A stretch of DNA of 55,978 nt from assembly GCA_964645125.1 (NCBI GenBank), contig CAZXZC010000001.1, forward strand, positions 1-55,978, read 5' to 3'. The first letter of the stretch is position 1, and every line of letters begins with the position of its first letter. The translations under genes were made by a program, and so were the position numbers. The DNA comes from an uncultured Candidatus Saccharibacteria bacterium. GTDB taxonomy: Bacteria; Patescibacteriota; Minisyncoccia; UBA6257; 2-01-FULL-56-20. A model generated the notes under the pieces. The model searched no databases. It was not told the DNA's origin and saw only the letters and a list, made by a program, of their open reading frames with translations. Shown here piece by piece: positions 16,447 to 44,152 of the stretch.

Positions 16447-16476
16447 TTGACATTGGTATTTTAATTACTAATAATT
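16447..16476 (+). promoter_or_regulatory. Candidate sigma-70-type promoter with an overlapping near-palindrome that could be the RHH operator
   Basis: TTGACA lies at 16447-16452 and a TAATAA/AATAAT box 16-17 nt downstream. The 16-nt sequence TAATTACTAATAATTA (16463-16478) is 14 of 16 self-complementary. The site is 25-55 nt upstream of the RHH gene ATG at 16502. Confidence 0.4.
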
Positions 16477-16501
16477 AGAATACTACTTTTTATTCACTTC
16501 C

Positions 16502-16714
16502 ATGAGCACACCGAAGTCTTCGTATACTACCGTTTCAATTCCCCTTCCTTTGAACAATAAAATTAAAAAACTTATTAAAAATAGTGGGTTTCGGTCGACG
16601 TCGGCGTTTGTGATATTTGTGCTTCGAGAATTGCTCACCGAACAAGAAGGCGCAGACATCATACTGGGCCATGAGCGCATACGAGAACGATTAAAAACAC
16701 TCGGCTATTTATAA
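16502..16714 (+). CDS. Ribbon-helix-helix (CopG/Arc/MetJ-like) small protein with a C-terminal LKTLGYL tail
   Basis: The 70-aa protein has an RHH-like pattern: beta strand TTVSIPLPL, helix NNKIKKLIKNSGFRS, helix TSAFVIFVLRELL. It ends in ERIRERLKTLGYL. It is the first gene of the plus-strand operon. Confidence 0.6.
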   Translation: MSTPKSSYTTVSIPLPLNNKIKKLIKNSGFRSTSAFVIFVLRELLTEQEGADIILGHERIRERLKTLGYL

Positions 16715-16744: not shown

Positions 16745-17017
16745 ATGGAACTTTCAGCGATTCTCGGGTGGACTGCAACAATTTTGTTTACGCTGTGCTA
16801 CATTCCCCAAATACTTAAAACTCATAAAACAAAAACGGTTGAGGGTTTGAGTTTTTTACTTTTGTTTATTTCGTTCGTGGCGAATATCGTAGCGCTTGTG
16901 TATGCCAGCATTATTCACCAAGTGCCGTTGCAGGTGAAGTACAGCTTCGCGCTCTTGTTTCTTAGCGCCACGATTATTTTGTATCTAAAAATTTGGCACA
17001 GGGAACGGAAAAAATAA
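16745..17017 (+). CDS. SemiSWEET / PQ-loop 3-TM transporter
   Basis: The 90-aa protein has three TM helices and the PQ-loop signature LFTLCYIPQILKTHKTKTVEGLS. Its size and layout are typical of bacterial SemiSWEETs. Confidence 0.8.
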   Translation: MELSAILGWTATILFTLCYIPQILKTHKTKTVEGLSFLLLFISFVANIVALVYASIIHQVPLQVKYSFALLFLSATIILYLKIWHRERKK

Positions 17018-17021: not shown

Positions 17022-18170
17022 ATGAATACACCTCTCGGCAAAACACTTGTTCAACGTGTAGCAACAGCCAAAGAAAAGGCTCGATTACTTCGACTTGCAC
17101 TCCCCTCGCTTGCCATATCAGATGAGCGTGCCACAGAAGTTCGCAACATCGCCCATGGCGTGTATAGCCCGCTAACTGGGTTTTTGGGGAAAAAAGACGT
17201 GGGTTCTGTTCTTCGCCATTGCACACTTACCACCGGTGTGTTTTGGCCCATACCGATAATTCTCGATATTTCAAAAGAGCAGGCTCTGCAATTTAAAAAA
17301 CAGAATGTTCCACGTCTTTTTTTGACCTCATCGACCGGGCGCAAACTCGCACTTTTAGATGTTTCTGAAATATACATGTTCGATAAAAAGGCGTTTTGTA
17401 TGGGCGTGTTTAAAACTACCGACACAAATCATCCGGGCGTAAAAAAAATATTCGCGCGTGGCGAGTATTTGATAGCGGGAGACATTACACTCTTGCAAGA
17501 TACCAAGGGCGAGTTTGCTCGATACAATCTTTCGCCACAGCAGGTGCGTGGTATTTTTGCCAAGCGGCACTGGAAAACCATTGTGGGATTCCATACTCGC
17601 AACGTTCCCCATCGTGGGCACGAGCATGTGCAGCGCGAAGGCCTGAAGCATGCGGATGGAATATTCGTCAATCCGTTGGTAGGGGTAAAAAAGGCGGGCG
17701 ATTTTCGCAACGAGGTAGTTTTGAAAGCATATGAATATCTTGCCCGCTATGTGCTACCGCGCGGAAAATCCTTGTTAGGCATTTTACCCCATAACCCGTA
17801 CTACGCAGGACCACGAGAAGCGCTGTTAACGGCTGTAATTCGCAAAAATTTTGGCTGCACCCATTTTATTATTGGCCGCGATCATACCGGTGTGGGCGAC
17901 TACTATAAACCCCAAGATTATGAACGGATGCTGGCGCGATACCAGGGACAGATGGGTATTACTGTTCTGCATTTTAAAGAAGCGTTATATTGCCGTGGGT
18001 GCGGCGGTATGATGCTCGAGAATCTGTGCGTGCACGATGAACATGAACGTGTTCGCCCAAGCGGCACTAAGGTTCGTGCCGCACTTGTTGCAAAAAAACA
18101 TCCACCGCACGAAATGATGCGGCCTGAAATAGTACAACTCGTGCTTCGACAAAAAACATTATTCGTATGA
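17022..18170 (+). CDS. sat: Sulfate adenylyltransferase (ATP sulfurylase)
   Basis: The 382-aa protein has the signature motifs GFHTRNVPHRGHEH and HFIIGRDHTGVG, plus a PUA-like N-terminal domain. Confidence 0.93.
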   Translation: MNTPLGKTLVQRVATAKEKARLLRLALPSLAISDERATEVRNIAHGVYSPLTGFLGKKDVGSVLRHCTLTTGVFWPIPIILDISKEQALQFKKQNVPRLFLTSSTGRKLALLDVSEIYMFDKKAFCMGVFKTTDTNHPGVKKIFARGEYLIAGDITLLQDTKGEFARYNLSPQQVRGIFAKRHWKTIVGFHTRNVPHRGHEHVQREGLKHADGIFVNPLVGVKKAGDFRNEVVLKAYEYLARYVLPRGKSLLGILPHNPYYAGPREALLTAVIRKNFGCTHFIIGRDHTGVGDYYKPQDYERMLARYQGQMGITVLHFKEALYCRGCGGMMLENLCVHDEHERVRPSGTKVRAALVAKKHPPHEMMRPEIVQLVLRQKTLFV

Positions 18171-19579
18171 ACAAAAAAACTCCCTCGCTTAAGAAAAAAG
18201 TCTTTGTGCTTGGTATCGACGGGCTCGTGCCCAGACTTGTGTTTGATCAGTATCGCGCGCACCTTCCGACCTTTAGTCGTTTAATGAAAGAAGGTGCGTA
18301 TGCGCGACTGCAGTCGACCGTTCCGCCGTCTTCTATTGTTGCGTGGACTTCAATTGCCTCTGGCAAAGACCCCGCCCAAACCGGCATTCATAGCTATACC
18401 AACCCACCACATAAATCTCGCGGCACTCGACTCACTACTTCGCAGGATGTCAGAGTTCCTTTGTTGTGGGACATTTTAACCACGCATCACAAAAAATCTA
18501 TCGCATTAAATATCCCCCTTACCTATCCGGTGCGTCCCATCAATGGATTCATGGTTAGTGACTTTTTAACTCCTTCTTTTGATACTCACAGTGTATATCC
18601 CCTTTCGTATAAAAAGAAGATCACACAGCTTCTCAAGGGTAAAGAGTACATGTTTGATGTGGCGGGGTTTACGGGATACAAAAAAATGGATTTGCAGGCG
18701 ATTGTCGATAAAACATACGAGATGACCGATATGCACTTTACGGTTGCCAATGATTTATTTCGTACCGCTGATTGGGATTTGTTTTTTATGGTTGCCATTG
18801 GCAGCGATCGTCTGCACCACATGTTCTGGCGCCATATTGACCCAGCCCACTCTCAATTCGTAAAAAATTCAAAGTATAAAAATGTGGTATTGGATTTTTA
18901 TACATATCTCGACGCAAAACTTGCGAGCTTTTTAAAGGTTCTTGATACAAACCCCCATGCAACAGTGCTTATTGTTTCTGATCATGGCATGGATAAAATG
19001 GAGCAGCGCTTTAACTTGAATGACTGGCTTATAAAAAAGGGTCACCTGACACTTACGGCAGAAGCGAAGTTACTTACGACCGCAGGCCCCAAAAGACTCG
19101 AGTATGGCCCAATGATCGACTGGAAAAAAACTGTTGCCGTCGCCAGCGGTGGATACCAAGGTCGCATTTACCTACTTGAGAAAAACAAAGAAAAACGAGC
19201 GAAGCTAAAGCGTTCAATTATGCAGCAGCTTGCTAAAATACCCGGCGCACGTGGTGAGCAACTAGAAAACCATGTGTTTGATACTGCGACACTCTACGCT
19301 CGGGTGGATAGTGCCGCACCGGACATTATTGTCTACTTCGATAATCTGCGCTATGGGGTAAATAACGATGTTGGCAATGTGGGCTTATACTCCACGGCAA
19401 CTACGGTGGGCGTTGATGACGCAGGACACGCCCCGTTAGGAAGTATTATTATTCGATCTTCCGACCTTCTCCAAACAGGAGACTTAGGCACTCTTGATAT
19501 ACTCCAGGTTGCACCAACTATCCTGAAGGCCTTGGATTTGCCGGAATACAAAAAACTGCGTGGCGCCCCCCTTCTCTAA
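18167..19579 (+). CDS. Alkaline-phosphatase-superfamily protein (type I phosphodiesterase / nucleotide pyrophosphatase family)
   Basis: The 470-aa protein has VFVLGIDGLVP, STVPPSSIVAWTSIASG (putative nucleophile region) and VSDHGM. Its start overlaps the sat stop by 4 nt. Confidence 0.75.
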   Translation: MNKKTPSLKKKVFVLGIDGLVPRLVFDQYRAHLPTFSRLMKEGAYARLQSTVPPSSIVAWTSIASGKDPAQTGIHSYTNPPHKSRGTRLTTSQDVRVPLLWDILTTHHKKSIALNIPLTYPVRPINGFMVSDFLTPSFDTHSVYPLSYKKKITQLLKGKEYMFDVAGFTGYKKMDLQAIVDKTYEMTDMHFTVANDLFRTADWDLFFMVAIGSDRLHHMFWRHIDPAHSQFVKNSKYKNVVLDFYTYLDAKLASFLKVLDTNPHATVLIVSDHGMDKMEQRFNLNDWLIKKGHLTLTAEAKLLTTAGPKRLEYGPMIDWKKTVAVASGGYQGRIYLLEKNKEKRAKLKRSIMQQLAKIPGARGEQLENHVFDTATLYARVDSAAPDIIVYFDNLRYGVNNDVGNVGLYSTATTVGVDDAGHAPLGSIIIRSSDLLQTGDLGTLDILQVAPTILKALDLPEYKKLRGAPLL

Positions 19580-19597
19580 ACATTTATTTTTATCTTC

Positions 19598-20665
19598 ATG
19601 AAACATCCTCACAAAAAACTCGCGACCCATATTTTGTGCACTATCGGCCCCACATCCGAATCAAAGACTGTTATTTCTGGACTCGTAAAAGCGGGCGTGC
19701 AGGGGCTGCGCATTAATTTAAGTCATACTCCACCCGAAAAGGCCCTTGCCATTGCACGCACCATTCGCAGTGTTTCAAAAACTGTTCCACTTATTATTGA
19801 TACTCAAGGAAAAGAAACACGCGTTGGTTCACTTGCTGGATCAATTACCATTTCAACAGGAGATACGCTTACTATTACACACTCTCATACTCACCCACTT
19901 CCCGCGCTTCATATTAGTCGATCCGATGTGTTTGACGTGGTGCGTCGAGGTGATCGATTCTCTCTGGATGATAACGCTCTTGAGTTTAAAATTATGAATA
20001 TTGATCGTGAGCATTCTCACCTTACTGTCGTTGCGGTAAAGGGCGGTGTGGTTGCAGCACCAAAAAACATAAAGTTTAAAAAGCCGTTTGAACCAAAATA
20101 TCCGCTCACTGACCGTGATCTTGAGACAATCAAGCTCCTTGCCCCCCTGGGCATTACCGAAGTTTCGCTTTCCTATGTGACCGATGCTGCCGATATTAAG
20201 CACTTGCGGGCGATGGTGTCGAAGAACATTCAGATTTCATCGAAGATTGAAAAAATGGCTGCCATTACCAACTTAGATGAAATTATTCAAGGCAGCGATA
20301 GAGTATTTATTGACCGTAACGATTTAGGTACAGAAATTGGGTATGAAAAAATACCACTCGTGCAAAAATTTATTACTGCCCGTTGCATTGCCGCTGAGAA
20401 GCCAGTGTTTGTGGCAACTCATCTACTAGAGAACATGATTACCAAAGACAAGCCGACCCGCGGTGAGGTAAACGATATTATCAATTTAGTACTTGATGGG
20501 GTACATGGCCTTATTCTTTCTTCTGAAACAGCTGTTGGGAAAGATCCGGTACGAATTGTAAAAACATTACAAACCTTGATCGCGCAAGCAGAATTTATTC
20601 TTCATAAAACCAAAGGTGCGGTGGCAGACACTTTGGCGCGACTCGATACGCTTCACTATCTCTAA
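19598..20665 (+). CDS. pyk: Pyruvate kinase with A and B domains only; the C-terminal domain is absent
   Basis: The 355-aa protein keeps the PK catalytic motifs: ILCTIGP, RINLSH, IIDTQGKETR, SSKIEKMAAITNLDEII, FIDRNDLGTEI, ATHLLENM and PTRGEVNDIINLVLDGVHGLILSSETAVGKDP. It ends about 110-120 aa short of typical PKs. Confidence 0.85.
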   Translation: MKHPHKKLATHILCTIGPTSESKTVISGLVKAGVQGLRINLSHTPPEKALAIARTIRSVSKTVPLIIDTQGKETRVGSLAGSITISTGDTLTITHSHTHPLPALHISRSDVFDVVRRGDRFSLDDNALEFKIMNIDREHSHLTVVAVKGGVVAAPKNIKFKKPFEPKYPLTDRDLETIKLLAPLGITEVSLSYVTDAADIKHLRAMVSKNIQISSKIEKMAAITNLDEIIQGSDRVFIDRNDLGTEIGYEKIPLVQKFITARCIAAEKPVFVATHLLENMITKDKPTRGEVNDIINLVLDGVHGLILSSETAVGKDPVRIVKTLQTLIAQAEFILHKTKGAVADTLARLDTLHYL

Positions 20666-20677: not shown

Positions 20678-21208
20678 ATGAAAACACAGGCCGCCTGCAC
20701 CGTTTGGTTTACTGGCTTATCTGGTTCGGGTAAAACCACGCTGGCTCGGCGTTTGAAACGCGCGTTGTCACGCCGAGGACACACTGCAGTCATTTTAGAT
20801 GGTGATGAGATTCGTAAAACCATTTCAAAAGATTTGGGTTTTTCAAAAAAGGATATTGCAGAAAATCATCGGCGCATTTTGGAGCTATGCAAAAAACATG
20901 CCCAGGCTGGCACCATTGTTATTGTGGCAACTATATCCCCTCACCGAGCAGTTCGGGCGCGTGCGCGCGCACAACTACCGCGGTTTGTAGAAGTATATTG
21001 CAACGCATCCCTTGATACGGTTCGGGCGCGCGACGTGAAGGGTCATTATAAAAATGTTGCATCGGGCGCACTGCGACAGTTTATTGGAGTGCATACCCCG
21101 TACGAAGCCCCCAAAGATCCCGAACTTACTCTGGCCACCCACGCAGAACCCCCCACCGTATCACTGAAAAAAATATTAGGATTTCTGGAAACTTGCGACT
21201 ATATTTAA
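20678..21208 (+). CDS. cysC: Adenylylsulfate (APS) kinase
   Basis: The 176-aa protein has the P-loop VWFTGLSGSGKTTLA, followed by ILDGDEIR and the LGFSKKD segment. Confidence 0.93.
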   Translation: MKTQAACTVWFTGLSGSGKTTLARRLKRALSRRGHTAVILDGDEIRKTISKDLGFSKKDIAENHRRILELCKKHAQAGTIVIVATISPHRAVRARARAQLPRFVEVYCNASLDTVRARDVKGHYKNVASGALRQFIGVHTPYEAPKDPELTLATHAEPPTVSLKKILGFLETCDYI

Positions 21209-21229: not shown

Positions 21230-22285
21230 ATGGCAACCATATATCTCCTCACAAACTCTCCAGACCAGCTCCAGGGTGCTTTTTTTAAGAGTACTGATGT
21301 TTCCACCGGCGGAAGATCAAATGTGGTGTTTTGGAATGAATTTAATGAGGCACTGCGTCAGAGCGGACACGCACTTGCAACCCATGATCAGTGGTCAAAA
21401 GAAATTGCTAATCCCGACGATATTTTAATCGTCGTTAACCATCCCGGAGAAACACTTTTATGGAAATTGTACTACCTATTTAAACACTTCAAGAGTCGCG
21501 GCGGCTTCATTCTTGATCGCCAGCGGTTTTTGAACACAAACTATCGTTTTTTTCAGAAGCGAATTTTGCTCCAAGCAGAGCCACCGATGGTGATGCCATA
21601 TGTATATCGCAATCTGTCATCTTTAGATGCCCAACGCGTTTACACAAAGATACTGTTAGTGTGCAAGGGGTTTGGTGCTCAGTATGGATACTTCAATAAC
21701 TTCTCTGATATTGGTAAAGATATTACGAGTAGGTATTTTAATAATCAAACACGTAAATTTCTTACGCTTATTAATGCAAACGTCACTCCTCATTCATTTA
21801 TCAATGAGTTTTACGGTGAACGCCTGAAGGCAATACGCTATTTTAGTACTGTGCCTGGCTTTGATCTCTATGGGTACAAGTGGGATGGTTTTATCAGACA
21901 TCCACTCTATATTCACTACGGCTCATATGTCAAAAAAACGTGGCGGGGCACAACGCCCGATAAAATAAAAACACTGAGTGAGTATACTTTTTGTTTATGT
22001 TATGAAAATTGTGCCTACCCCGGATATTTCAGTGAAAAGATATTCGATTGTTTGGCGGCTGGGTGCATCCCTGTATATTTGGGAGCGCCCGATATTACTG
22101 ATGTAGTACCTGCCTCATGTTTTATTGATTTTAGAAATTTTCCGGATTACCCATCGCTCCACCGACATCTTTCATCTTTGTCGGAACATGACATTAGTCG
22201 CTATCGCGCCGCTATTGCTGCATTTTTGCACAGCCGGAGCGGAAGTGCTCACATGCACGATTTTGTACAAAAACTTATTGCCTGA
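21230..22285 (+). CDS. GT10-like glycosyltransferase (alpha-1,3/4-fucosyltransferase family)
   Basis: The C-terminal region EYTFCLCYENCAYPGYFSEKIFDCLAAGCIPVYLGAPDI..FIDFRNF matches the GT10 motif (F.L.FENS...GYVTEK..DA...G.VPVY.G). Confidence 0.7.
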   Translation: MATIYLLTNSPDQLQGAFFKSTDVSTGGRSNVVFWNEFNEALRQSGHALATHDQWSKEIANPDDILIVVNHPGETLLWKLYYLFKHFKSRGGFILDRQRFLNTNYRFFQKRILLQAEPPMVMPYVYRNLSSLDAQRVYTKILLVCKGFGAQYGYFNNFSDIGKDITSRYFNNQTRKFLTLINANVTPHSFINEFYGERLKAIRYFSTVPGFDLYGYKWDGFIRHPLYIHYGSYVKKTWRGTTPDKIKTLSEYTFCLCYENCAYPGYFSEKIFDCLAAGCIPVYLGAPDITDVVPASCFIDFRNFPDYPSLHRHLSSLSEHDISRYRAAIAAFLHSRSGSAHMHDFVQKLIA

Positions 22286-31313: not shown

Positions 31314-32198
31314 CTAGTAATTCCGGTGCGTTAGAAACCGAAATACCACTACTGCATTCCACCAGCAGAGTTTTAACTTTTGTGTCAACGAAAGCTGCTT
31401 CTGTTTGAATATAAAACCGGTGTTCCAAAATTGAGTGCGAATAAGCGCGAGTCTGTAGTATATGGCAGCAATAATTCGAGAAATGGTAAGTGGATCATGC
31501 TCCTTTGATTCTGCGCCTGGGAGCGTGCCTTTAAAAAATAAAATTTCATTCACGAATAAAAATGTACCGTGGGCAAGTCCTCTAAATGAAAAGTTAATAT
31601 CTCCATCTGGTAAATCGCTGTACACATCATTTGCTATTGCTGATCGCCTCCAAAGCCCATGTATCGTCATGGCCTTTCCTAACCCCCATGGCATCAAGGT
31701 GAATTGTTTGAGACGCTCGTATAATCCTTTTTCAGTTACTACAAATCCCTTAGTATCCATTTTTAAGACTCGCTCCCCTTTCTCGTTTACATGCACATAA
31801 TCAGCCATCACCATGGCAGCGTGTGGATCTTTTGTAATCCGCGCCATACATTTTTCAATATATGTGGGGTCTAAATAATCGTCGTAGGATACCCACATAA
31901 AATATTCGCCGTGCGCAGCGTGTAGCGCGTATGTGTAATTTGGGCACGCTCCGATATTTGGGTTATGGCGAATATACCGCACCCGAGAGTCTTTTTTTGC
32001 ATACTCTTCACACACCTGTTGCGTTGCGTCGGTTGAAGGGTTGTCCGAAATAATAAGCTCGATGTTTGTATATGTTTGTGCAAGCGCTGATTCAATGGCT
32101 TTTTGTACATACGGAATACCGTTGTAGACTGGCAAACCGATAGTTACCAATGGTGTTTTAGAATTCATATGAGTATTGGTATCAAAACTATAGACCAT
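31314..32198 (-). CDS. Family 2 glycosyltransferase
   Basis: The segment VTIGLPVYNGIPYVQKAIESALAQTYTNIELIISDNPSTDAT and a later DDY motif are canonical GT2 features. Confidence 0.9.
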   Translation of the reverse strand: MVYSFDTNTHMNSKTPLVTIGLPVYNGIPYVQKAIESALAQTYTNIELIISDNPSTDATQQVCEEYAKKDSRVRYIRHNPNIGACPNYTYALHAAHGEYFMWVSYDDYLDPTYIEKCMARITKDPHAAMVMADYVHVNEKGERVLKMDTKGFVVTEKGLYERLKQFTLMPWGLGKAMTIHGLWRRSAIANDVYSDLPDGDINFSFRGLAHGTFLFVNEILFFKGTLPGAESKEHDPLTISRIIAAIYYRLALIRTQFWNTGFIFKQKQLSLTQKLKLCWWNAVVVFRFLTHRNY

Positions 32199-32227
32199 TT
32201 TGAGGGTATTGAAAACGATTTACCGCA

Positions 32228-32905
32228 TTAATCCCTCAACACCCAAGCCCCTCCTTCTTGATCACGACGATCGAAGTAGCTGAGCAACTCTTTGTATGAG
32301 ATGTGTAATCCCATAGTCTCATAGCGTTTTATTTTGGCAAGTTCAATACTCAAATGATCAATTCTTTTTGCCCGTGGGTCACTCTCTGAGTGAATCACTG
32401 ACGTAACCCATGATGGAGCTGGTGCAGGCATGCTATACACCTGTATTGATGCCTGCGCCTTCACGCACGCACTCACTACTGAAATAACTGTCCTCACCTG
32501 ATGGAGTGGCGGGGCGACTATCCCGATATCTTTCCAGCCTTTTTCTGCTGCATATGCAATGCATCCTCGCGCTTCGGCATCGGTTGAAGGGGGCAAATCA
32601 GCGGCAAGCGGAAAAACGTAAATGGCATCAGCAGCAACACCATGCTCTATGAGTCTTTTTTTCACTGATTCATACCCGGGGACGGTAAACTCTCTTGTGT
32701 GCGCTCCTACGTATCCTGATATAGCGATCGAGCCCGCAGCGCCAAGCTTCCATGCTTCAGCTGCTGTTTCTATAGATGCGGCTTCGTTTTCTCCGGTTTC
32801 AGTAACCAGACATATCGCGTCAAGCCCATGTGGTGGTCGCACGTCGCACAATATTCTTGTTGTTACCTTAAAAAGATCCTCTTCCGCGTGAGACATTTTT
32901 GTCAT
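32228..32905 (-). CDS. YdcF/ElyC/SanA (DUF218)-like protein
   Basis: The segments DAICLVTETGENEA..A..W.LGAAGSIAISGY......T.PGYESVKKRLIEHGVAADAIYVFP...PPSTDAEA resemble the DUF218 core. The start is set at ATG 32905, because the longer track ORF overlaps the sulfatase-like gene. Confidence 0.5.
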   Translation of the reverse strand: MTKMSHAEEDLFKVTTRILCDVRPPHGLDAICLVTETGENEAASIETAAEAWKLGAAGSIAISGYVGAHTREFTVPGYESVKKRLIEHGVAADAIYVFPLAADLPPSTDAEARGCIAYAAEKGWKDIGIVAPPLHQVRTVISVVSACVKAQASIQVYSMPAPAPSWVTSVIHSESDPRAKRIDHLSIELAKIKRYETMGLHISYKELLSYFDRRDQEGGAWVLRD

Positions 32906-32921
32906 AGTGGTATGGTAGTTG

Positions 32922-34295
32922 TTATTTTTTGATAGCCATCTCGGTGGGTCCACAGATGCGAGTATACGGCTCAAGCATTGTTTCTAATTTCTTTGCTATC
33001 TCTGGTTCTTTAGCATAGAGATTATTTTCACAGAGTACATCATCTAATACGCATAGCGTTGTAGCGTCAATCATTTTCACCATTCGATATCCTCCATATA
33101 CAAGACTTGCGCCCAAAAATGTTTGGTTCGATAGATCTGCTTCTGAATCAGGCACCTGCCCGATTATTGCTCGTTCTGTTGCATCAAATATATTACCCCC
33201 CTTAAACACTGTTGGCTTGGTAATACCGGCGAGTTCGAGTACGGTTGGTGCAACATCAATAAGACTTACTGGTCTTTCGATGCGTGCTTGTGGTATGTGT
33301 GCTGGCGCATGGAATAGTAATGGGACATGTTGATTTACATAGTACAGCGTATCACGATGGCCAACGCCTCCGTGATCAAAAAACTCCTCTCCGTGGTCAG
33401 AAAAAATAACCACGATACTTTCATCATTTATAATGCCCTTTTTGGTGAGTGTGGCATAGAGTCTTTCTATATTTTTATCTGTGTAGCGTAATGATGCATC
33501 GTAAATTTCTCGATACAATGATTTGATCATCTTTAAGAGTGGTGACGTTAATCCACCTGCCAGCATTGGAGCTATGTCGCATAACCAATACTTACACTTT
33601 TGCACGAGCGTCCCTGTTTTGCGCCAGAAGAGCCCGTAGGGAGCGTGAGTGTCCATGAAGTGGACCCACAAAAATAATGGCTGCTCGGTCTGGCCTGGCA
33701 CTCTTTTCTCCACTTCTTCATTTATTTCTTCGGCAATTAAAAATGCAGGGCGAAATCGAAATATATCGACTATAATTTTACGGATCGTGAAGATGGTTTT
33801 TTCTACTATACGGAACAAAAAGGCAACAAGCGGTACCTTGCTCCGCAAAGACCGATTTATTGAGCCTATCGTTTTTAATACCTTCGATTGCCATGTATCG
33901 CCTCGTATGCCCTTCATAATTCCGCCTGTTTTGAACGGACTGAGGTATGCATACGTGTCCCACCCCCTGTCATATCCAAAATATGAGGACATGTACCCGG
34001 CCGAATGAACCCCTATTGTCATATATCCAGCATCGTGCAAAACCTCACTTATCATAACTCGGGGACGATCGATATATGCAAACCCCCCATAATCAAATGG
34101 GTGGGTTGAGGTAAGTGTTCCTACAAAGGAGTGCGGAGAACCAGGCCCCGTAGAAAACGCTCGCAAAAAAACCGCGCTTTTCAATGCAATCGCGTCAAGG
34201 AACGGGGTGTAGCTCGGCTTGTAACCACCGTATCCCATTCGATCCCCTCGCCCTGCATCAAAACTTATAAAAATGATGTTTGGCTTTTTTTTCAT
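32922..34295 (-). CDS. Sulfatase-family (alkaline-phosphatase superfamily) hydrolase/transferase without an evident C/S-x-P-x-R formylglycine motif
   Basis: The 457-aa protein has PNIIFISFDAGRGDR (metal-binding Asp), WVHFMDTHAPY, FSDHGEEFFDHG and SLIDVAPTVLELAGI. The position of the expected CxPxR reads GPGSPHSFVGTLTS. Confidence 0.8.
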   Translation of the reverse strand: MKKKPNIIFISFDAGRGDRMGYGGYKPSYTPFLDAIALKSAVFLRAFSTGPGSPHSFVGTLTSTHPFDYGGFAYIDRPRVMISEVLHDAGYMTIGVHSAGYMSSYFGYDRGWDTYAYLSPFKTGGIMKGIRGDTWQSKVLKTIGSINRSLRSKVPLVAFLFRIVEKTIFTIRKIIVDIFRFRPAFLIAEEINEEVEKRVPGQTEQPLFLWVHFMDTHAPYGLFWRKTGTLVQKCKYWLCDIAPMLAGGLTSPLLKMIKSLYREIYDASLRYTDKNIERLYATLTKKGIINDESIVVIFSDHGEEFFDHGGVGHRDTLYYVNQHVPLLFHAPAHIPQARIERPVSLIDVAPTVLELAGITKPTVFKGGNIFDATERAIIGQVPDSEADLSNQTFLGASLVYGGYRMVKMIDATTLCVLDDVLCENNLYAKEPEIAKKLETMLEPYTRICGPTEMAIKK

Positions 34296-34343
34296 TGTAC
34301 ATAATGCATCGCGACCGCGGTCGTTTCCGCATAAACCACAACT

Positions 34344-34556
34344 CTACATATATCCCAATGCCTTCAGTTGTTCCATAACCTTCTTTTTTTCTTCTTCGGT
34401 TGCTGAATCCTGCTTCGTATCGGCTTTTTTTAAAGCACTCTTCTTTTTATTCTCTTCTTTTTGCGATGACCCACCGCCTTTTCCTGTGCTCTTTTTGTTT
34501 CCTGAAAACCAATTTTTCATATACCTTATGCTATCAGGCATCTTACGACGAGGCAA
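34344..34556 (-). CDS. Small lysine-rich, probably disordered protein ending in an LKALGYM tail
   Basis: The 70-aa ORF could be 58 aa if it starts at the internal MKNWF. It is low-complexity and K/E/S/G-rich, and it ends EEEKKKVMEQLKALGYM. That tail parallels the RHH protein tail ERIRERLKTLGYL. The ORF fills the gap between the GT2 and sulfatase-like genes on the same strand. Confidence 0.5.
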   Translation of the reverse strand: MPRRKMPDSIRYMKNWFSGNKKSTGKGGGSSQKEENKKKSALKKADTKQDSATEEEKKKVMEQLKALGYM

Positions 34557-34589
34557 TAAGACGTTGCCGGTCTTTACCCCAACTCTTCC

Positions 34590-35438
34590 CTAGCGCGCCT
34601 GCTGGCTGGTTTTGGCCGTAAACAGCTTTTTTTTCAATATCGAGAACATGTCGTAGGTTTTTTTTCGAATCCATGCGGGGAAATATGTATAGATGAGATA
34701 GCCATATGCATAGATCAGGCCTTTCAAGTATCCAGGGTATTGTCTTTTGTAGCTATTTACAATACGAACTGCACAGCGAGCATTACTACGCTGGTTATTG
34801 AATGATGCACTCCCTGCATGGAGCCGGTATCCGGTAAAATACTGCGGGAAGTTATAGAATTTCCCTTGAGTGCCTAATCGTAGCCAGTACTCCCAATCAG
34901 CAAAATTCGCGAGTGTTTCATCGTAGAGCTGCGCATCTTTTCCTGTGTGGCGTCGAAACAGTGATGTGGAATTAACAATGGGGTTTGCAAACAGTGCAAT
35001 TTGATGAATCTGCTCATCTGACTCTGCTTTTAGGGCGCGAGACAATTCTTTATTGTCTTTATTTACCATCACAATTCCCCCTCCACAGGCAATGTAATCT
35101 GGGTGAGTATCTAAAAAATGTACCTGTTTTTTTAGTTTGTCTGGGTCAAGCCAATAGTCATCGTCGTCCAAAATAGCAATGTATTCGCCGCGAGCCCGCG
35201 AAAGACCGAAATTTGAGATTGCAGCGATTGAGGGAAGGTGCGGAGAGTAATGATATGCGATTCGCTGATCTTGTGCTTGGTATTTTTTCCCCACCTCAGC
35301 AGTGCCGTCAGATGATCCGTTGTCGGCAATGATTATTTCCCACTCTTGGAAACTTTGCTTTTGCACACTCTCTATTGCTTGGGGTAAAAAATGGGCCCTG
35401 TTCCATGTGGTTATGAGTACTGTTACGCGAGGATTCAT
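34590..35438 (-). CDS. Family 2 glycosyltransferase
   Basis: It has VTVLITTWNRAHFLPQAIESVQKQSFQEWEIIIADNGSSDGT and ILDDDDYW. Confidence 0.9.
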   Translation of the reverse strand: MNPRVTVLITTWNRAHFLPQAIESVQKQSFQEWEIIIADNGSSDGTAEVGKKYQAQDQRIAYHYSPHLPSIAAISNFGLSRARGEYIAILDDDDYWLDPDKLKKQVHFLDTHPDYIACGGGIVMVNKDNKELSRALKAESDEQIHQIALFANPIVNSTSLFRRHTGKDAQLYDETLANFADWEYWLRLGTQGKFYNFPQYFTGYRLHAGSASFNNQRSNARCAVRIVNSYKRQYPGYLKGLIYAYGYLIYTYFPAWIRKKTYDMFSILKKKLFTAKTSQQAR

Positions 35439-35533: not shown

Positions 35534-36865
35534 ATGAACGTTCGCTTACGTGCTCGAGCACTCACAGTATTTATTGGTGATATTGCTATATTCTATGCTA
35601 GTTTATTTGTTGCGCTTTTAATACGCGTGGAGCCAACCCTCTCTACTTCCTTGATAGCATTGCACCTCACCCCTTTTACTCTTATTTTGTTTTTTTGGGT
35701 TCTTATTTTTTACATTTCCGGACTCTATGATGTTCCTCGCATGCGCAATGGCACCGATTTCTTCTCCACCCTTTTCATATCGATTCTAGTAAATGTGTTT
35801 ATTGCGATTGGCTTTTTTTATACGTTCCCGGTTTTTGGTATTGCCCCCAAAACTACATTACTCTTTTTTGTAGTAACTTTTTTTATTTTTGAGGTATTGT
35901 GGCGGCGAGGTTTCAATCGATATATCGCAACACAAAAGGATAAGCTTGGCGTATTACTTCTTGGCAATACCACAACCAGCACTGAAATTCTTCGGCTTAT
36001 AAACTCTCATCCGCATCTTGGGTATGTTTCCGTTGGTCACTTTCCCCATGCTATATCTAGCGAACAACTCCGCGCCTTTTTACAAAACACTGATGGCTTG
36101 GTAGTTACACTCTCTGAAACATTTTCTCACGATAAGACAATTACCTCCATACTCGCCGATGCGGTTGTTTCAGGAATTGAAGTTCATAGCGAAATTCTTT
36201 TTTATGAGGAGTTGGTGCGACAAGTGCCTTTGGCAAATGTGACGCCATCGTGGTTTTTTGATACTCAATTTAGCAAACAGACGTTGTATGATCAGTTTAA
36301 ACGAACCTTTGAGTTGATTGGGGCCGTCCTTCTGCAGATCATCCTCCTCCCCCTTGAACTATGCATTGCGCTTCTTATACGTATTACCTCGCGAGGACCT
36401 GTGTTCTACCGCCAAGCACGGGTTGGTAAACATGGGAATGTATTTCAGATTTATAAATTTCGCAGCATGCGCGTGGACGCAGAAGCCGCGGGGGCACAGT
36501 GGTCGGGTGGAGCCAACGATCCTCGTGTTACGCTTTTTGGGAAATTTTTACGCCACAGTCATCTTGATGAGCTCCCGCAACTTCTGAATATCATTCGCGG
36601 TGAAGTTTCGTTTGTTGGGCCACGCCCAGAGCGCCCAGAAATTATTGCGAAACTTACTCCCGAAATCCCTTTCTACCATATGCGCCATATGGTTACTCCT
36701 GGTATCACCGGGTGGGCTCAAATTAATTTTAAAAAAGACCAGACAATTGACGATGTGAAGCGAAAACTTGAGTACGATTTTTATTACATTAAGCACCGAT
36801 CATTTCTTTTTGATATTGCTATTATCGTGCGAACTGTTAAGTCACTTTTTATCAATCACACATAG
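35534..36865 (+). CDS. Polyprenyl-phosphate glycosyl-1-phosphate transferase (WbaP/bacterial sugar transferase family), the initiating enzyme
   Basis: The 443-aa protein has N-terminal TM helices and a C-terminal catalytic domain with GPVFYRQARVGKHGNVFQIYKFRSM, DELPQLLNIIRGEVSFVGPRPERPE and PGITGWAQI. Confidence 0.92.
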   Translation: MNVRLRARALTVFIGDIAIFYASLFVALLIRVEPTLSTSLIALHLTPFTLILFFWVLIFYISGLYDVPRMRNGTDFFSTLFISILVNVFIAIGFFYTFPVFGIAPKTTLLFFVVTFFIFEVLWRRGFNRYIATQKDKLGVLLLGNTTTSTEILRLINSHPHLGYVSVGHFPHAISSEQLRAFLQNTDGLVVTLSETFSHDKTITSILADAVVSGIEVHSEILFYEELVRQVPLANVTPSWFFDTQFSKQTLYDQFKRTFELIGAVLLQIILLPLELCIALLIRITSRGPVFYRQARVGKHGNVFQIYKFRSMRVDAEAAGAQWSGGANDPRVTLFGKFLRHSHLDELPQLLNIIRGEVSFVGPRPERPEIIAKLTPEIPFYHMRHMVTPGITGWAQINFKKDQTIDDVKRKLEYDFYYIKHRSFLFDIAIIVRTVKSLFINHT

Positions 36866-36867: not shown

Positions 36868-38334
36868 ATGTTACGGAAATTATTTACATTTCTCTTTCGC
36901 AACACTTCAACCCGCCAAACAATCGCGAAAAATACCTTTTGGGGATTCGTGGGTCAAATTGGTGGTCGATTATTGCGGTCTGTATTAATTATTTATGGCG
37001 CACGAGTGTTGGGCGCACAGCAGTGGGGAGCGTTTTCATATGCGATTACCCTCATTGCGTTTTTGACTATCTTTGTGGATATTGGCATCAATACCATACT
37101 CACAAAAGAAACAGCGCGTAACAAAGTTACTACTCGTGATTTTCAATCTCTTCTTTCTACGTTGTTTCTTATGAAGCTCTTTCTTTTGGGGATTGGGGTG
37201 TTTTTTGTTCTTTCTGTCGCTCCACACATATCAAAAATTACTGAGGCAAATGCACTGTTCCCACTCTTTGCCCTTATTCTTATTTTTGACACCTTGCGTG
37301 AATTTGGGTTTTCTCTGATGCGCGCACGGGAAATTCGTGAAGTTGAAGCAGGGCTCTTTATGCTTACCAATTTAGCAGTAGTTGTGTTTGGATTTTTATT
37401 CCTTTTTATAAAACCAACTGTTTTGTTTTTTACATACGGCTATGTCATAGGTACGGCAATTGGGTGTCTTGCGACCGCAATTGCGATGCGTCGTGAGCTT
37501 GGATACTTATTTTCTTTTTTTAAGTTTTCGCAAATATACCCAATACTTTCGGCGGCGTGGCCATTTGCCGCGTCTAGCGTTCTGGGGATCTTTATGTTAA
37601 ACGCCGATATTCTTATTTTGGGTTGGTTTCGCAATGCCACGGAAGTTGGGTACTACTCGGCGGGTAATAGAATTGTGCAGTTATTCTATCTTCTCCCTAG
37701 TATCTTGACGGTGAGCGCACTGCCCGCATTGGCTCGGTTTGCGGTTTCTGATACTAAAAAAATGCGCATCCTTTTAGAACAGATTTTATCATTCCTTTTT
37801 TTAATAGCTATCCCCCTTGGAATTGGTGGGGCACTTCTTGGAAAAGAAATAATAGTGCTGATTTTTGGAACAGAATATGCACCAGCCTCCCTATCATTTC
37901 GTGTTTTAATGCTTACCTTAATTATTGATTTTTGCGCCCTGACTCTTTCTAATGCGATATTTTCCTTTGACCAACAACAAAAACTTATTATCAATACTGC
38001 CCTTGGAGCATCGATTAATGTGCTTGGTGATATTATTCTGATACCTCGTTTTGGGATGAATGGGTCCGCCTTTGCTACGCTTGCCGCACAATTGGTTAGT
38101 ATGACTTACTTATGGCATGCAACCTACCGATTGCTCCCCTTTTCGATTCTCCCTAAATTACGAGGCGTTCTGATTGCCACGGTCGGCATGGCACTTCTTG
38201 TTTTGTTGCTACAAATACTTCATGCATCTGTGGTGATCTCCATTATTGCTGGAGGTGCTTGCTATCTCCTGCTTTTGTACGTACAGAAAGATGCTACTCT
38301 CAAAGAAATTAAACATATCTTTTATCGCGCATAA
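36868..38334 (+). CDS. wzx: Wzx-type polysaccharide flippase (MOP superfamily)
   Basis: The 488-aa protein has about 12-14 TM helices. The N-terminus (NTFWGFVGQIGGRLLRSVLIIYGARVLG) is typical of the polysaccharide biosynthesis protein family. Confidence 0.85.
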   Translation: MLRKLFTFLFRNTSTRQTIAKNTFWGFVGQIGGRLLRSVLIIYGARVLGAQQWGAFSYAITLIAFLTIFVDIGINTILTKETARNKVTTRDFQSLLSTLFLMKLFLLGIGVFFVLSVAPHISKITEANALFPLFALILIFDTLREFGFSLMRAREIREVEAGLFMLTNLAVVVFGFLFLFIKPTVLFFTYGYVIGTAIGCLATAIAMRRELGYLFSFFKFSQIYPILSAAWPFAASSVLGIFMLNADILILGWFRNATEVGYYSAGNRIVQLFYLLPSILTVSALPALARFAVSDTKKMRILLEQILSFLFLIAIPLGIGGALLGKEIIVLIFGTEYAPASLSFRVLMLTLIIDFCALTLSNAIFSFDQQQKLIINTALGASINVLGDIILIPRFGMNGSAFATLAAQLVSMTYLWHATYRLLPFSILPKLRGVLIATVGMALLVLLLQILHASVVISIIAGGACYLLLLYVQKDATLKEIKHIFYRA

Positions 38335-39400: not shown

Positions 39401-40303
39401 TCAATTTTTTTCCATAATGATCCACCCATTTGGCACAAGGCTGTGCGGCAAATCAAAACCAATCCACGCACGCGGCGCAATTATTATCGGCTTCTTGTTT
39501 TGATTGAGCCATCCACCCCACCATGAAAAGGTGCTATTGGCTATAATCATATGCTTACATAATGCCATTAAATGAAGATGGAATGCATTCTTTGGCCCTG
39601 CTGTACGCTGATCAAGAATGGTTACTGGTGCGTTTATATGGATATTTTTTTTACACCACTCACTATCGTCGGAAAAAATAAAAAAGTGAGGGTCTTTTAC
39701 TTGTTCCTGTATATATTTCGTTGCTTTCTCGTAGTATGCGAGATTGGTGTCCCCCACTATTTTTTTCATTTTTTCTGTTGCAACATAATCGCCTCGACGA
39801 ATATGAACACCTACTGCGTTCGCTCGCATTATTTCTTCTTGCACCCGCTGAGCTTCACCAACAATCGGGTCACGAAATTGCAATTGTTTTCGTAGCTCAT
39901 CTGTTGAATCACGAAAATACCATTCGTGTTGCCACCTCCCCCATAGTGTCGTATTTGCCGGAGACTGTACTATACGTTCATCAAATATTTTTTCATTTTT
40001 TTCTATAACTAACTTCGTACTACCAACCATACCTTGAATTGCCGCACACGCAATATCAATACCGAGCCACACTCCTGGTATCGGATAGTGTTTCGATATT
40101 TTTGAAAATACTGTTGTTTTGTATTCTGCAGTAAATACATCGAGATCGAATGTCCTGTATGTAAATTGGCGCCTTGGAAATGTATCGTTCAAAAATGTAG
40201 TATCGAGCATGAGCTCGGTATTATTTTTTCTCGCTAAATGAAATCCAAGCGCGTACTGGAATAGTTGGTTCCCCAATCCTCCTCTTAAAAATACTTTTAT
40301 CAT
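39401..40303 (-). CDS. GT11 alpha-1,2-fucosyltransferase
   Basis: The N-terminus MIKVFLRGGLGNQLFQYALGFHLA, then HIRRGDY, and the C-terminal NSTFSWWGGWL are the GT11 signature motifs. The start is set at ATG 40303, forming an ATGA overlap with the stop of the GT9 gene. Confidence 0.85.
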   Translation of the reverse strand: MIKVFLRGGLGNQLFQYALGFHLARKNNTELMLDTTFLNDTFPRRQFTYRTFDLDVFTAEYKTTVFSKISKHYPIPGVWLGIDIACAAIQGMVGSTKLVIEKNEKIFDERIVQSPANTTLWGRWQHEWYFRDSTDELRKQLQFRDPIVGEAQRVQEEIMRANAVGVHIRRGDYVATEKMKKIVGDTNLAYYEKATKYIQEQVKDPHFFIFSDDSEWCKKNIHINAPVTILDQRTAGPKNAFHLHLMALCKHMIIANSTFSWWGGWLNQNKKPIIIAPRAWIGFDLPHSLVPNGWIIMEKN

Positions 40304-41577: not shown

Positions 41578-42545
41578 TGGCGTGTTTTTTTTAACAACTG
41601 ATCTTTTTGTATCGCTGTTGTGCCCCCAATCCCCACAACAACACCAGCCGCACTATTTGCAATCATTGCAGCCGTTTGCAGATCTGATCCCGCAGCAAGC
41701 GCCAGTGCCACAACGGCTACAACCGTATCTCCTGCCCCCGTGACATCAAAAACACTTGAGGCGTTCGTTGGAATATGGGTCAAGGAGCCAGTATCTTTTC
41801 TTACAATGGTCATTCCTTTGTTTGATCGCTTTAATACCACAGAACTTCTAAATCTCGCGGAAAGTTCCCGAGCGGCTTTTTCGGCATAGGAGTCATCTTC
41901 AACCCCATATCCAGTCAATTCAAAGGCTTCTTTTTGATTTGGAAACACCGCATATACATCTTTAAATAATTTCGCATTTTTTGGTTTAAAATCAGCCAAT
42001 ATTTTTTTGTTGAAGATTTTTTTTATTTCTTTCATCACGCGCTCGCTTATCATTCCTTTTGCATAATCAGAAATGACAACAACATCGGCGTCTTTGTGCT
42101 TTTGTATCTGCTCCACTATCTTTTCTCTGTATGGAGACAGCACCTCGTGTGTATGCTCCGTATCTATGCGCGCAATCTGTTGCTGGCCAACTACAATTCT
42201 TGTTTTTGTAGTTGTTGGTCTACTGGTATCGCATACCAGCTCATGCATGACGCCAATCTTATCACATAAATTTTTTATTATATCTCCCTCCGGATCGTGT
42301 CCAACTATACCGCACAAAACTGCTACACCTCCTAATGAGGCGATATTTGAAGCAACATTCGCGGCACCCCCCAATATATCACGATTGTTTTGTTTTTTTA
42401 TTACTGGAATCGGTGCTTCCGGGGATATTCGATCTGAGGTGCCAAGCAGATATCGATCAAGCATCACATCTCCTATTATCAAAATTTTTCTTCCCTGAAA
42501 GCCCTTTATAATTTCTGCAAAATTTTTCTTCCTTGACGTGGTCAT
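41574..42545 (-). CDS. hldA: D-glycero-beta-D-manno-heptose-7-phosphate kinase (RfaE domain I / HldA type, PfkB family); no adenylyltransferase domain
   Basis: The 323-aa protein has ILIIGDVMLDRYLLGTSDRISPEAPIPV and DVTGAGDTVVA. It ends after the kinase domain. Confidence 0.85.
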   Translation of the reverse strand: MTTSRKKNFAEIIKGFQGRKILIIGDVMLDRYLLGTSDRISPEAPIPVIKKQNNRDILGGAANVASNIASLGGVAVLCGIVGHDPEGDIIKNLCDKIGVMHELVCDTSRPTTTKTRIVVGQQQIARIDTEHTHEVLSPYREKIVEQIQKHKDADVVVISDYAKGMISERVMKEIKKIFNKKILADFKPKNAKLFKDVYAVFPNQKEAFELTGYGVEDDSYAEKAARELSARFRSSVVLKRSNKGMTIVRKDTGSLTHIPTNASSVFDVTGAGDTVVAVVALALAAGSDLQTAAMIANSAAGVVVGIGGTTAIQKDQLLKKTRQ

Positions 42546-42572
42546 ATACGCTCGTTCAATATTTGTTTTTTA

Positions 42573-43133: not shown

Positions 43134-43182
43134 GGCGTCATTGTATCCTTTTTTAGTGGTATTTCAAAGCGTCCCGCTCCTT

Positions 43183-44136: not shown

Positions 44137-44152
44137 CGATAATTGCGCGCGC

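Follow-up and report, generated by a model that had tools for sequence, protein, structure and literature searches.

A 55,978-nucleotide stretch of contig CAZXZC010000001.1 (assembly GCA_964645125.1) from an uncultured Candidatus Saccharibacteria bacterium, referred to here as the window, encoded on its minus strand a sulfatase-fold enzyme of 457 amino acids (aa) and, directly 5′ of it, a Lys-rich microprotein. We propose, with moderate confidence, that this enzyme is a putative glycan sulfotransferase of the kind represented by Agl30 and Agl31 of Halobacterium salinarum, acting together with a C-terminal LxxLGY tail that the microprotein supplies in trans. The proposal was drawn because homologues of the enzyme adjoin sulfate-activation genes, because Agl30/31 provide a precedent and because no canonical sulfotransferase was present in the glycan-assembly island that surrounds it. 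It concerns the following features:

32922..34295, minus strand: sulfatase-fold enzyme, putative glycan sulfotransferase; 457 aa, Pfam PF00884.
34137..34139, minus strand: codon of Ser53, the proposed catalytic nucleophile, placed by the phmmer alignment to 7OZ8; the alignment column holds Thr and Ser.
34344..34556, minus strand: Lys-rich microprotein ending ...EKKKVMEQLKALGYM; 70 aa from TTG 34556, probably 58 aa from ATG 34520.

The list of open reading frames (ORFs) and the Pfam scan confirmed both ORFs and the motifs quoted for the enzyme in a first-pass annotation of this DNA: SFDAGRGD, HFMDTHAPY, SDHGEEFFDHG and G52-S-P-H-S56 were all present, and the Pfam Sulfatase family (PF00884) covered the 457-aa protein end to end (E = 5.7e-34). 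A phmmer search against PDB sequences paired STGPGSPHSFVGTLTS of the enzyme with SSCPSSTPARAGLLTG of the Bacteroides sulfatase 7OZ8, which puts Ser53 at the formylglycine (FGly) position. In this alignment Ser53-Pro-His-Ser-Phe lay opposite S-T-P-A-R of 7OZ8, such that the motif Pro was replaced by His55 and the motif Arg by Phe57. Column counts were taken from an alignment of 110 homologues of the enzyme (A2). The Ser53 column contained 69 Thr, 41 Ser and no Cys, and the Pro and Arg of the C/SxPxR motif were missing in 110/110 clade members. The first-pass annotation had stated that the FGly CxPxR motif was lacking and had proposed a Ser/Thr nucleophile in its place; the former held, as Ser53 was correctly placed but the Pro and Arg were absent, and the latter was supported by the column counts. 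D13, R16, D18, S56, H217, Y265, D273, D300, H301 and H313 were invariant or nearly so in A2.

His313 lies 12 residues past D300-H301, where, by ungapped counting, 7OZ8 and other sulfatases carry a sulfate-binding Lys; the phmmer alignment, which contains two gaps, put Asp315 and not His313 opposite the 7OZ8 Lys. Judged from these alignments, the two cationic sulfate ligands of sulfatases are replaced in the enzyme, the Arg by Phe57 and the Lys (the latter by ungapped counting) by His313. The spacing of His313 matches the D-H...H arrangement of phosphoethanolamine (PEA) transferases and LtaS.

The AlphaFold2 (AF2) model of the enzyme was compact and soluble, with a predicted local distance difference test score (pLDDT) of 95.3 and a predicted template modelling score (pTM) of 0.94, and it contained a long helical insertion at residues ~135-180. 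The catalytic strand starts at residue 7, and neither the sequence nor the model of the 457-aa enzyme revealed a signal peptide, a transmembrane (TM) segment or an N-terminal multi-pass membrane domain; the enzyme is cytoplasmic. The best Foldseek matches in the PDB were the S1 formylglycine sulfatases 9FO1, 6UST, 7STT, 8DI0 and 7OZ8 and choline sulfatase, with template modelling scores of 0.6-0.67, and LtaS and the PEA transferases were not among them. Weak NCBIfam and PDB matches were found to LtaS (2W8D, E = 5e-8), CptA, EptA and PafA. The kinship with LtaS and PEA transferases suggested in the first pass is retained for the pattern of catalytic residues but not for the fold, which was nearest to that of S1 sulfatases, nor for a membrane domain, which the enzyme lacks. 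The architecture is that of a true sulfatase, whereas the residues that bear the chemistry differ, with a hydroxyl nucleophile in place of FGly.

The closest homologues were 36-57% identical to the enzyme and carried the database names Parcubacteria/Liptonbacteria, of the candidate phyla radiation (CPR). At E ≤ 1e-30 an exhaustive HMMER search gave 659 cluster representatives, a number that rose to about 38,000 at E ≤ 1e-10. The aligned sequences suggest that Ser/Thr in place of FGly is the signature of a large clade that extends across Bacteria and Archaea.

Databases name this family 'sulfatase' or 'arylsulfatase A-like enzyme', and the S1-sulfatase fold and metal site would also fit a hydrolytic Ser-nucleophile sulfatase that trims or edits glycan sulfate or salvages sulfate. 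We regard this as improbable, as the FGly-motif Pro and Arg and the sulfate-binding Arg and Lys are absent and no maturase was encoded by the window ORFs. When FGly is mutated to Ser in human arylsulfatases, the sulfo-enzyme is trapped and there is no turnover, which also speaks against hydrolysis. Additionally, the protein is cytoplasmic and is encoded in a biosynthetic cluster beside genes that activate rather than release sulfate, and the Agl30/31 precedent speaks for transfer.

That a sulfatase-like protein can be a glycan sulfotransferase is already known since 2025. VNG1056C (Agl30, membrane-bound) and VNG1057C (Agl31, soluble) sulfate two sugars in Halobacterium salinarum's N-linked tetrasaccharide; both are annotated as sulfatase-like members of the alkaline-phosphatase superfamily and are encoded in the aglB cluster, and the evidence came from deleting the genes and from expressing them heterologously in Haloferax volcanii (Zaretsky et al., mBio 2025; PMC11980604). 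In the reverse cloning primers for Agl30/Agl31, the gene-specific stretches translated to the C-termini HLEDLGYL / LEELGYT. A comparison of the two primer sequences with genome contigs gave two chance matches and no Halobacterium locus. A haloarchaeal homologue of the window enzyme, P0105 from Halobaculum (E = 9e-31, 31% identity over 82% of the enzyme), is encoded directly adjacent to aglB/STT3 and a flippase gene, and the gene of another, P0325 from Halorubrum lacusprofundi, lies between GT4 glycosyltransferase genes; Hbt. salinarum was not among the best 120 matches of a homologue search seeded with P0105. From the tails and the published description we infer that Agl30 and Agl31 very probably belong to the clade of which the window enzyme is a bacterial, tail-less member.

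The 47 window ORFs that were taken as genes were scanned with Pfam. This revealed a glycan-assembly island with a Wzy-like protein, glycosyltransferases of the GT2, GT9, GT10-like and GT11 families and enzymes of GDP- and dTDP-sugar modification. A plus-strand block of the island contained the sulfate-activation genes:

16462..16477, plus strand: palindrome TAATTA-N4-TAATTA, candidate operator for the protein of the next line, 25 nucleotides (nt) 5′ of its start.
16502..16714, plus strand: ribbon-helix-helix (RHH)-like protein of 70 aa, putative sulfation-module regulator, assigned by sequence pattern; ends ...RERLKTLGYL.
16745..17017, plus strand: PQ-loop / SemiSWEET-like membrane protein of 90 aa (PF04193, E = 4e-15), in an operon with the RHH gene.
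17022..18170, plus strand: ATP sulfurylase with PUA_2 and ATP-sulfurylase domains (Pfam, E = 8.7e-75).
18167..19579, plus strand: Phosphodiest-family protein of the alkaline-phosphatase superfamily (PF01663, E = 5.6e-33), whose start overlaps the ATP sulfurylase stop.
19598..20665, plus strand: pyruvate-kinase barrel-domain protein (PF00224, E = 1.2e-64), ends ...LARLDTLHYL.
20678..21208, plus strand: adenosine 5′-phosphosulfate (APS) kinase (PF01583, E = 7.1e-50), which makes 3′-phosphoadenosine 5′-phosphosulfate (PAPS).
21230..22285, plus strand: GT10-like glycosyltransferase (PF00852, E = 1.3e-13).

The GT10-like gene is followed in this block by a gene for a NUDIX protein. Pfam detected no formylglycine-generating enzyme, no radical S-adenosylmethionine enzyme and no sulfotransferase domain in the 47 window genes, in agreement with the earlier remark that the window lacks a maturase. 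Four island ORFs had no Pfam match, and the PKxG[ST][ST] (PKxGTT-type) PAPS-binding motif was absent from the unannotated ORFs of the island. The PQ-loop half-transporter may take up sulfate or carry a sulfated product out of the cell.

Ten related CPR loci and 77 others were fetched and labelled L001, L002 and so on. Seventy of these were distant metagenomic loci with a sulfatase-like gene 26-37% identical to the window enzyme; many of their contigs were short, and sulfate-activation genes were counted in the DNA available, within 8 kb. ATP sulfurylase or APS kinase genes were found in 16/70 distant loci and, when PAPS-reductase-family genes were included, in 21/70. Among the distant loci of at least 5 kb, 17/48 contained a gene of the sulfate-activation type. 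By our own estimate, the expected chance adjacency to a single-copy gene is well under 1%.

In the CPR relatives, the two modules that are separate in the window were joined in one divergent unit. One side of this unit comprised the genes for the LGY-tailed RHH protein, the PQ-loop protein, ATP sulfurylase, the phosphodiesterase-like protein and the pyruvate kinase-like protein, and the other side those for the microprotein, the sulfatase-like enzyme and the GT10-like protein, followed by GT2 and methyltransferase genes. RHH homologues (58-65% identity) adjoined the enzyme gene divergently in L001-L003, L006, L012, L014, L015 and L086. The PQ-loop gene was kept beside the RHH gene in L001, L002, L003 and L006; in L007 the PQ-loop match was partial and lay at the end of the contig, with the expected position of the RHH gene beyond it. 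The ATP sulfurylase gene was in the same module in L003 and L087, the Phosphodiest-family gene was conserved in L003, L012, L014, L015, L086 and L087, and the pyruvate-kinase barrel gene came after the phosphodiesterase-like gene in L003 and L087. GT10-like homologues (45-58% identity) were located downstream of the enzyme gene in L001-L003, L006, L009, L011, L012, L014 and L015. The two genes overlapped in L001, L002, L003, L006 and L015, were separated by a few to ~45 nt in L009, L012 and L014 and lay ~1.4 kb apart in L011.

Two further observations concern the conserved plus-strand module. Genes for PQ-loop proteins of 86-105 aa shared an operon with those for the RHH protein and ATP sulfurylase (window 16745-17017, L001 5600-5896, L003 5398-5715, L086 13561-13821), and the order ATP sulfurylase, Phosphodiest, pyruvate-kinase barrel formed a conserved operon (window 17022-20665, L003 1611-5239, L087 3037-6650). 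The pyruvate-kinase barrel protein lacks the usual C-terminal domain.

The first-pass annotation had guessed at sulfuryl transfer to the glycan. This guess gained support from the Agl30/31 precedent, from the way in which homologues are linked to sulfate activation and from the lack of a canonical sulfotransferase in the island, and the function is given here as putative. Several points weigh against it. In the window, the enzyme gene and the sulfate-activation genes are 12-17 kb apart and on opposite strands, and 49/70 distant loci had no sulfate-activation gene in the DNA available, with many contigs being short. The role of sulfotransferase could instead fall to the Phosphodiest-family protein (18167-19579), whose translation is coupled to that of ATP sulfurylase. 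It is phosphoryl rather than sulfuryl transferases that typically combine a Thr/Ser nucleophile with the D-H...H pattern. Finally, the link to Agl30/31 was drawn from the tails and the published description, and the Agl30/31 paper gives neither a sulfate donor nor a mechanism, the words 'PAPS' and 'donor' being absent from its text (PMC11980604).

The main alternative is that the enzyme handles phosphate and, as a phosphodiesterase or phosphotransferase, equips the glycan with a phospho-substituent; we consider this possible but rather unlikely. The same standing is given to a variant in which the enzyme clears 3′-phosphoadenosine 5′-phosphate (PAP), APS, PAPS or pyrophosphate while the 18167-19579 protein or an unannotated ORF carries out the sulfation. 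Both would agree with the combination of Ser/Thr, D-H and a His 12 residues later, which is the pattern of PEA transferases and LtaS, and with the weak matches to LtaS, CptA, EptA and PafA; many homologues of the enzyme also matched PF01663 (Phosphodiest). Additionally, Pfam scans of the island did not reveal a CysQ-type PAP phosphatase, and the four island ORFs without a Pfam match leave room for another sulfating protein. The structural neighbours, however, were sulfatases and not LtaS or EptA, and the enzyme has no membrane domain for a lipid donor. The PKxGTT-type motif was absent from the unannotated ORFs, and the characterised carriers of the tail, Agl30 and Agl31, are sulfotransferases. 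The enzyme gene is located inside a glycosyltransferase operon and, in relatives, adjoins or overlaps the GT10-like gene; this position among glycosyltransferase genes points to a glycan as the likely substrate.

If the enzyme is a glycan sulfotransferase, the following scheme may apply, in which the sulfuryl donor, the covalent intermediate, the acceptor and the tail partner are all inferred. The sulfuryl group of PAPS (or APS), made by the ATP sulfurylase and APS kinase of the island, would be taken onto Ser53. The resulting sulfo-Ser intermediate could not be released by the gem-diol elimination available to FGly, and the sulfuryl group would be passed to a sugar hydroxyl of an undecaprenyl-linked glycan built by the neighbouring glycosyltransferases. 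Such a scheme would be ping-pong, as LtaS and EptA do with phospho-groups. [quoted passage not shown] The tail of the RHH protein may compete for the same site, which would link repression to the state of the machinery.

The microprotein is very likely a real gene. An AAGG ribosome-binding site precedes ATG 34520, and in its homologues the initial MKK/MAKK leads straight into the Lys-rich part; a product of 58 aa, not 70 aa, is therefore probable, which reads MKNWFSGNKK...KKVMEQLKALGYM. The small ORF of the first-pass annotation was thus real, whereas its length was probably overstated. Lys-rich ORFs of 40-66 aa were located directly 5′ of the enzyme gene in the window and in L003, L007, L012, L014, L015, L086 and L087, and in the window and these seven relatives they ended [ER][EK][KR]VMEQL[KR]ALGY[ILM]. 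A profile search found 10 database clusters of homologues, one of them a hypothetical protein of a Patescibacteria bacterium. In the last 13 codons, third-position changes numbered 105, compared to 46 at position 1 and 19 at position 2, and synonymous differences numbered 84, compared to 43 non-synonymous ones. As changes fell mainly on third positions, the peptide is under purifying selection. The conservation check called for in the first pass was run, and non-conservation of the ORF, which would have told against it, was not what was found.

The GT2 gene, the microprotein ORF and the enzyme gene share one reading frame with a single TAG stop between each (window 32922-35438, minus strand), and the small ORF might thus not be independent but a read-through extension of the upstream GT2 gene, or it might be a chance ORF. 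We consider this very improbable. TAG is an ordinary stop here and ends 15/47 window genes; where relatives offered enough upstream DNA, the microprotein starts at an ATG of its own and is not preceded by an in-frame gene; and its tail is under purifying selection. As TAG is ordinary and the ORF stands alone in relatives, the in-frame layout is probably a coincidence, and read-through or recoding of TAG was rejected. The genes found divergently 5′ of the microprotein were RHH or PQ-loop genes (L003, L012, L014, L086 and L087), and in L015 an unannotated gap of ~0.7 kb lay between the microprotein and the RHH gene.

The microprotein (...VMEQLKALGY) and the RHH-like ORF were the only window ORFs with LGY one residue from the stop; ...LARLDTLHYL of the pyruvate-kinase barrel protein is a degenerate form of the same tail. 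The first-pass annotation had noticed that the microprotein tail mirrors that of the RHH protein (16502-16714), and this likeness proved to be part of a much wider pattern. Among 868 ORFs of at least 150 aa from related loci, LGY followed by 0-4 residues ended 63, whereas five permutations of the tripeptide ended 0-8; the enrichment is far beyond chance. The tail was carried in cis by 90/265 sulfatase-like homologues, in the extended form h-D-x(6)-L-[RK]-x-L-G-Y-x-[ED]. The window enzyme has no tail of its own, ending ...PTEMAIKK, and the tail is on the adjacent microprotein. The aromatic residue was always Tyr and never Phe, Trp or His (n = 211), and an acidic residue usually stood two positions past it.

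Other kinds of tailed protein in the fetched loci were Phosphodiest-family proteins, a second and shorter sulfatase-like protein, arylsulfate sulfotransferase (ASST)-like proteins, RHH proteins and 50-aa zinc-ribbon proteins. A PAPS_reduct-family protein with the tail was encoded in 3 CPR loci and in 18 distant ones. No CPR locus combined the microprotein with the tailed PAPS_reduct protein (...RERIMKQLRSLGYN), the two being mutually exclusive there. Small tailed ORFs were located within 3 kb of 17/72 tail-less enzymes and of 0/19 tailed enzymes (Fisher p = 0.012). A tail able to act in trans fits these two observations.

We tentatively suggest that the LxxLGY tail docks on the enzyme or on a shared partner. 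An analogy is offered by the nearest relatives of solved structure, choline sulfatase, phosphonate monoester hydrolases (PMHs) and dimeric arylsulfatases, in which C-terminal extensions bind the neighbouring protomer; the tail of choline sulfatase puts Leu499, Leu502 and Arg507 into the active-site tunnel of its neighbour (PMC5870055). P0105, which ends ...LENLGYME, was modelled by AF2 with a confident core, and its residues 420-437 formed a short helix of low confidence (pLDDT 57-74) that was not docked, which is compatible with a mobile docking element. Literature searches on the LGY sulfatase motif and on CPR sulfatase glycosylation found no description of the tail.

The undocked helix of P0105, and the generic helix C-cap form that we read in the motif, would also suit a tail that has no shared partner and is a stable helix cap (Schellman-type L-x-x-L-G-aromatic) recurring by descent or convergence, with the microprotein doing something unrelated, such as nucleic-acid binding via its Lys-rich part. 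This is unlikely given the extreme and family-specific enrichment (63/868 compared to 0-8), the retention of Tyr in all 211 tails and the occurrence of the tail on unrelated folds, all in sulfation loci (sulfatase-like, PAPS_reduct, Phosphodiest, ASST-like, RHH and zinc-ribbon). The mutual exclusion of the microprotein and the tailed PAPS_reduct protein in CPR loci and the finding of small tailed ORFs only beside tail-less enzymes likewise argue against this reading.

A more far-reaching idea, which we hold to be quite improbable, is that the tail Tyr is O-sulfated, such that the tail would be a protein-borne aryl-sulfate serving as a sulfuryl carrier or sensor. The ancestral substrates of sulfatase-fold enzymes are aryl sulfates. 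The invariant Tyr of 211 tails, the acidic residue at +2, the tailed ASST-like proteins in the loci and the mobile tail of the AF2 model would fit. On this long shot the microprotein would be a dedicated sulfuryl carrier, and sulfatase-fold enzymes would move the sulfuryl group from its sulfotyrosine to Ser/Thr and then to the glycan. It is equally doubtful that a sulfated RHH tail would report the PAPS supply to the promoter.

Further tailed proteins were recorded in the fetched loci. PAPS_reduct (PP-loop) proteins ended ...ERAGRRQDKEKAMERMRKLGYM and, in CPR, ...RERIMKQLRSLGYN (L001 4579-5382, L006 6525-7322). The tailed PAPS_reduct gene, the sulfatase-like gene and ATP sulfurylase formed a recurrent three-gene module, and PAPS_reduct ORFs of ~280 aa lay just 3′ of the sulfatase-like gene in L035, L042, L045, L051, L058, L060, L063, L065, L066, L073-L078, L083 and L085. 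The closest solved relatives of the tailed PAPS_reduct proteins in the PDB were FAD synthase and PAPS reductase, not CysD; although E. coli CysD ends ...RQGYF, a derivation of the tail from CysD is not claimed. ASST-like proteins ending ...LQRRLESLGY (L045 5625-6794, L077 3632-4930) adjoined ATP sulfurylase and the sulfatase-like gene; the L045 protein matched Pfam Arylsulfotran_2, and the L077 protein was placed only by its near-identical tail. ASST-like proteins constitute a third sulfur-group-handling fold with an LGY tail. In distant lineages, 50-aa zinc-ribbon proteins (...RARLKSLGY; L065 7470-7622, L075 7410-7562) were encoded just 5′ of tail-less sulfatase-like genes, and the stop codons of 68-aa RHH-like proteins (...KKRLQELGYINAP; L049 401-607, L053 7799-8005) overlapped the start of the tail-less enzyme. 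Loci that are probably haloarchaeal encoded six further LGY-tailed proteins of 300-390 aa (L025 12553-13467 and 13660-14700, L028 5821-6909, L046 13554-14729, L079 3464-4447, L080 8905-9831). Two of the six belonged to the alkaline-phosphatase superfamily (one Phosphodiest-like, one short sulfatase-like) and four had no Pfam or PDB match; PDB searches with two of the unannotated haloarchaeal proteins gave no match.

The palindrome TAATTA-N4-TAATTA had a single match in the window. It was present at the RHH / PQ-loop promoter in 10/10 related CPR loci and in 0/77 of the other loci. Recorded sites were L001 4558-4573 and 5910-5925, L003 5720-5735, L006 6505-6520 and 7865-7880, L012 7639-7654, L014 1741-1756, L015 7155-7170, L086 7910-7925 and L087 6877-6892, and in L001 and L006 the palindrome also stood 5′ of the tailed PAPS_reduct gene. 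It is plausibly the operator of the LGY-tailed RHH protein, a candidate assignment made from sequence that would tie the two modules together. The RHH-like protein itself had no Pfam or PDB match and was assigned to RHH from its sequence pattern.

The remaining features of the glycan island around the enzyme gene were as follows:

34590..35438, minus strand: GT2 glycosyltransferase (Pfam PF00535, E = 3.8e-29), directly upstream of the microprotein ORF.
35534-36865: priming sugar transferase of the glycan island.
36868-38334: Wzx flippase of the glycan island.
31314..32974, minus strand: downstream same-strand block, consisting of a DUF218-like gene (32228-32974) and a GT2 gene (31314-32198).

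Homologues of the DUF218-like gene and of the downstream GT2 gene were both found 3′ of the enzyme gene in L015, where the DUF218-like homologue comes after the GT10-like gene. When read from its TTG start, the DUF218-like ORF shares 53 nt with the 3′-end of the enzyme gene; its start is more likely the ATG at 32905 (MTKMSH...), which removes the overlap. The region 39401-45175 (minus strand) also encoded a GDP-mannose 4,6-dehydratase and an epimerase/reductase (GDP-fucose-type pathway), a GT11 fucosyltransferase-like and a GT9 heptosyltransferase-like protein, and SIS and PfkB sugar-phosphate enzymes. Given these fucose and heptose genes, the glycan may hold fucose and heptose, either of which could accept sulfate.

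Sulfated glycans are common, and many of the clusters that produce them, this one included, have no recognisable sulfotransferase. The 2025 work on Halobacterium assigned this task to two sulfatase-like proteins but did not address how far their family extends. Beyond the function known for Agl30/31, several findings appear to be new: the spread of sulfatase-like sulfotransferases of this kind to CPR and to a large clade of Bacteria and Archaea; Ser/Thr in place of FGly as a clade signature, with a systematic coupling to sulfate activation; the split layout in which a conserved microprotein bears the C-terminal tail of the family; and the recurrence of the LxxLGY tail, within sulfation loci, on regulators as well as on enzymes with other folds. 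If true, the proposal would offer a testable sulfo-Ser/Thr ping-pong mechanism and a rule for re-annotating many 'sulfatase' proteins. It suggests that the Agl30/31 kind reaches CPR bacteria with minimal genomes, in a clade of 659 representatives at E ≤ 1e-30. The tail marks enzymes of four folds, regulators and microproteins within sulfation loci; were it a docking tag or a carrier, it would show how a sulfation pathway is assembled and regulated, and the Tyr-sulfation reading, if true, would be of high interest.

Like the window enzyme, Agl30 and Agl31 are sulfatase-like proteins of the alkaline-phosphatase superfamily encoded in a glycan-assembly cluster, and Agl31 is soluble too. Agl30 and Agl31 sulfate sugars of a lipid-linked glycan, as is proposed for the window enzyme. 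Around the window enzyme gene lie GT2 genes and the genes of a priming sugar transferase and a Wzx flippase, and the P0105 gene is beside aglB. The systems differ in that Agl30 and Agl31 carry ...L-x-x-LGY-x on the enzyme, whereas the window locus has the tail on a separate microprotein, and in that the window enzyme is bacterial (CPR/Parcubacteria) and has Ser53 rather than the Thr of most relatives at the nucleophile position.

The S1 sulfatases BT1918 (7OZ8) and BetC (6FNY/6G60) and the PMHs (4UPH/4UPK) have the same two-domain fold (template modelling scores 0.6-0.67) and share the metal-binding Asp, the Asp-His and the H-x-P motif with the window enzyme. Unlike it, they have the C/S-x-P-x-R motif and the sulfate-binding Arg and Lys and occur in a catabolic context, whereas that of the window enzyme is biosynthetic. 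The window enzyme also has the long helical insertion (~135-180) and no maturase in the window.

LtaS, EptA/MCR-1 and the OpgB-type enzymes (PF00884) have only the catalytic pattern in common with the window enzyme, namely a Ser/Thr nucleophile, the metal, D-H and a His at +12. These enzymes move a group to an acceptor via a covalent intermediate and do not hydrolyse it. They have an N-terminal multi-TM domain and phospholipid donors, whereas the window enzyme is soluble, nearer to the sulfatases and linked to sulfate activation.

The canonical PAPS-dependent sulfotransferase Stam10/Sam10 (9VKI) would perform the same proposed overall reaction, the sulfation of a glycan sugar with a cluster-encoded PAPS supply. 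This fucose sulfotransferase was tried as a relative and rejected, as its canonical sulfotransferase fold is unrelated. Enzymes of the Stam10/Sam10 type have this P-loop-like fold and no covalent enzyme intermediate, and such a domain is absent from the window, in which the proposed sulfation would instead proceed through Ser53 of a sulfatase-fold enzyme.

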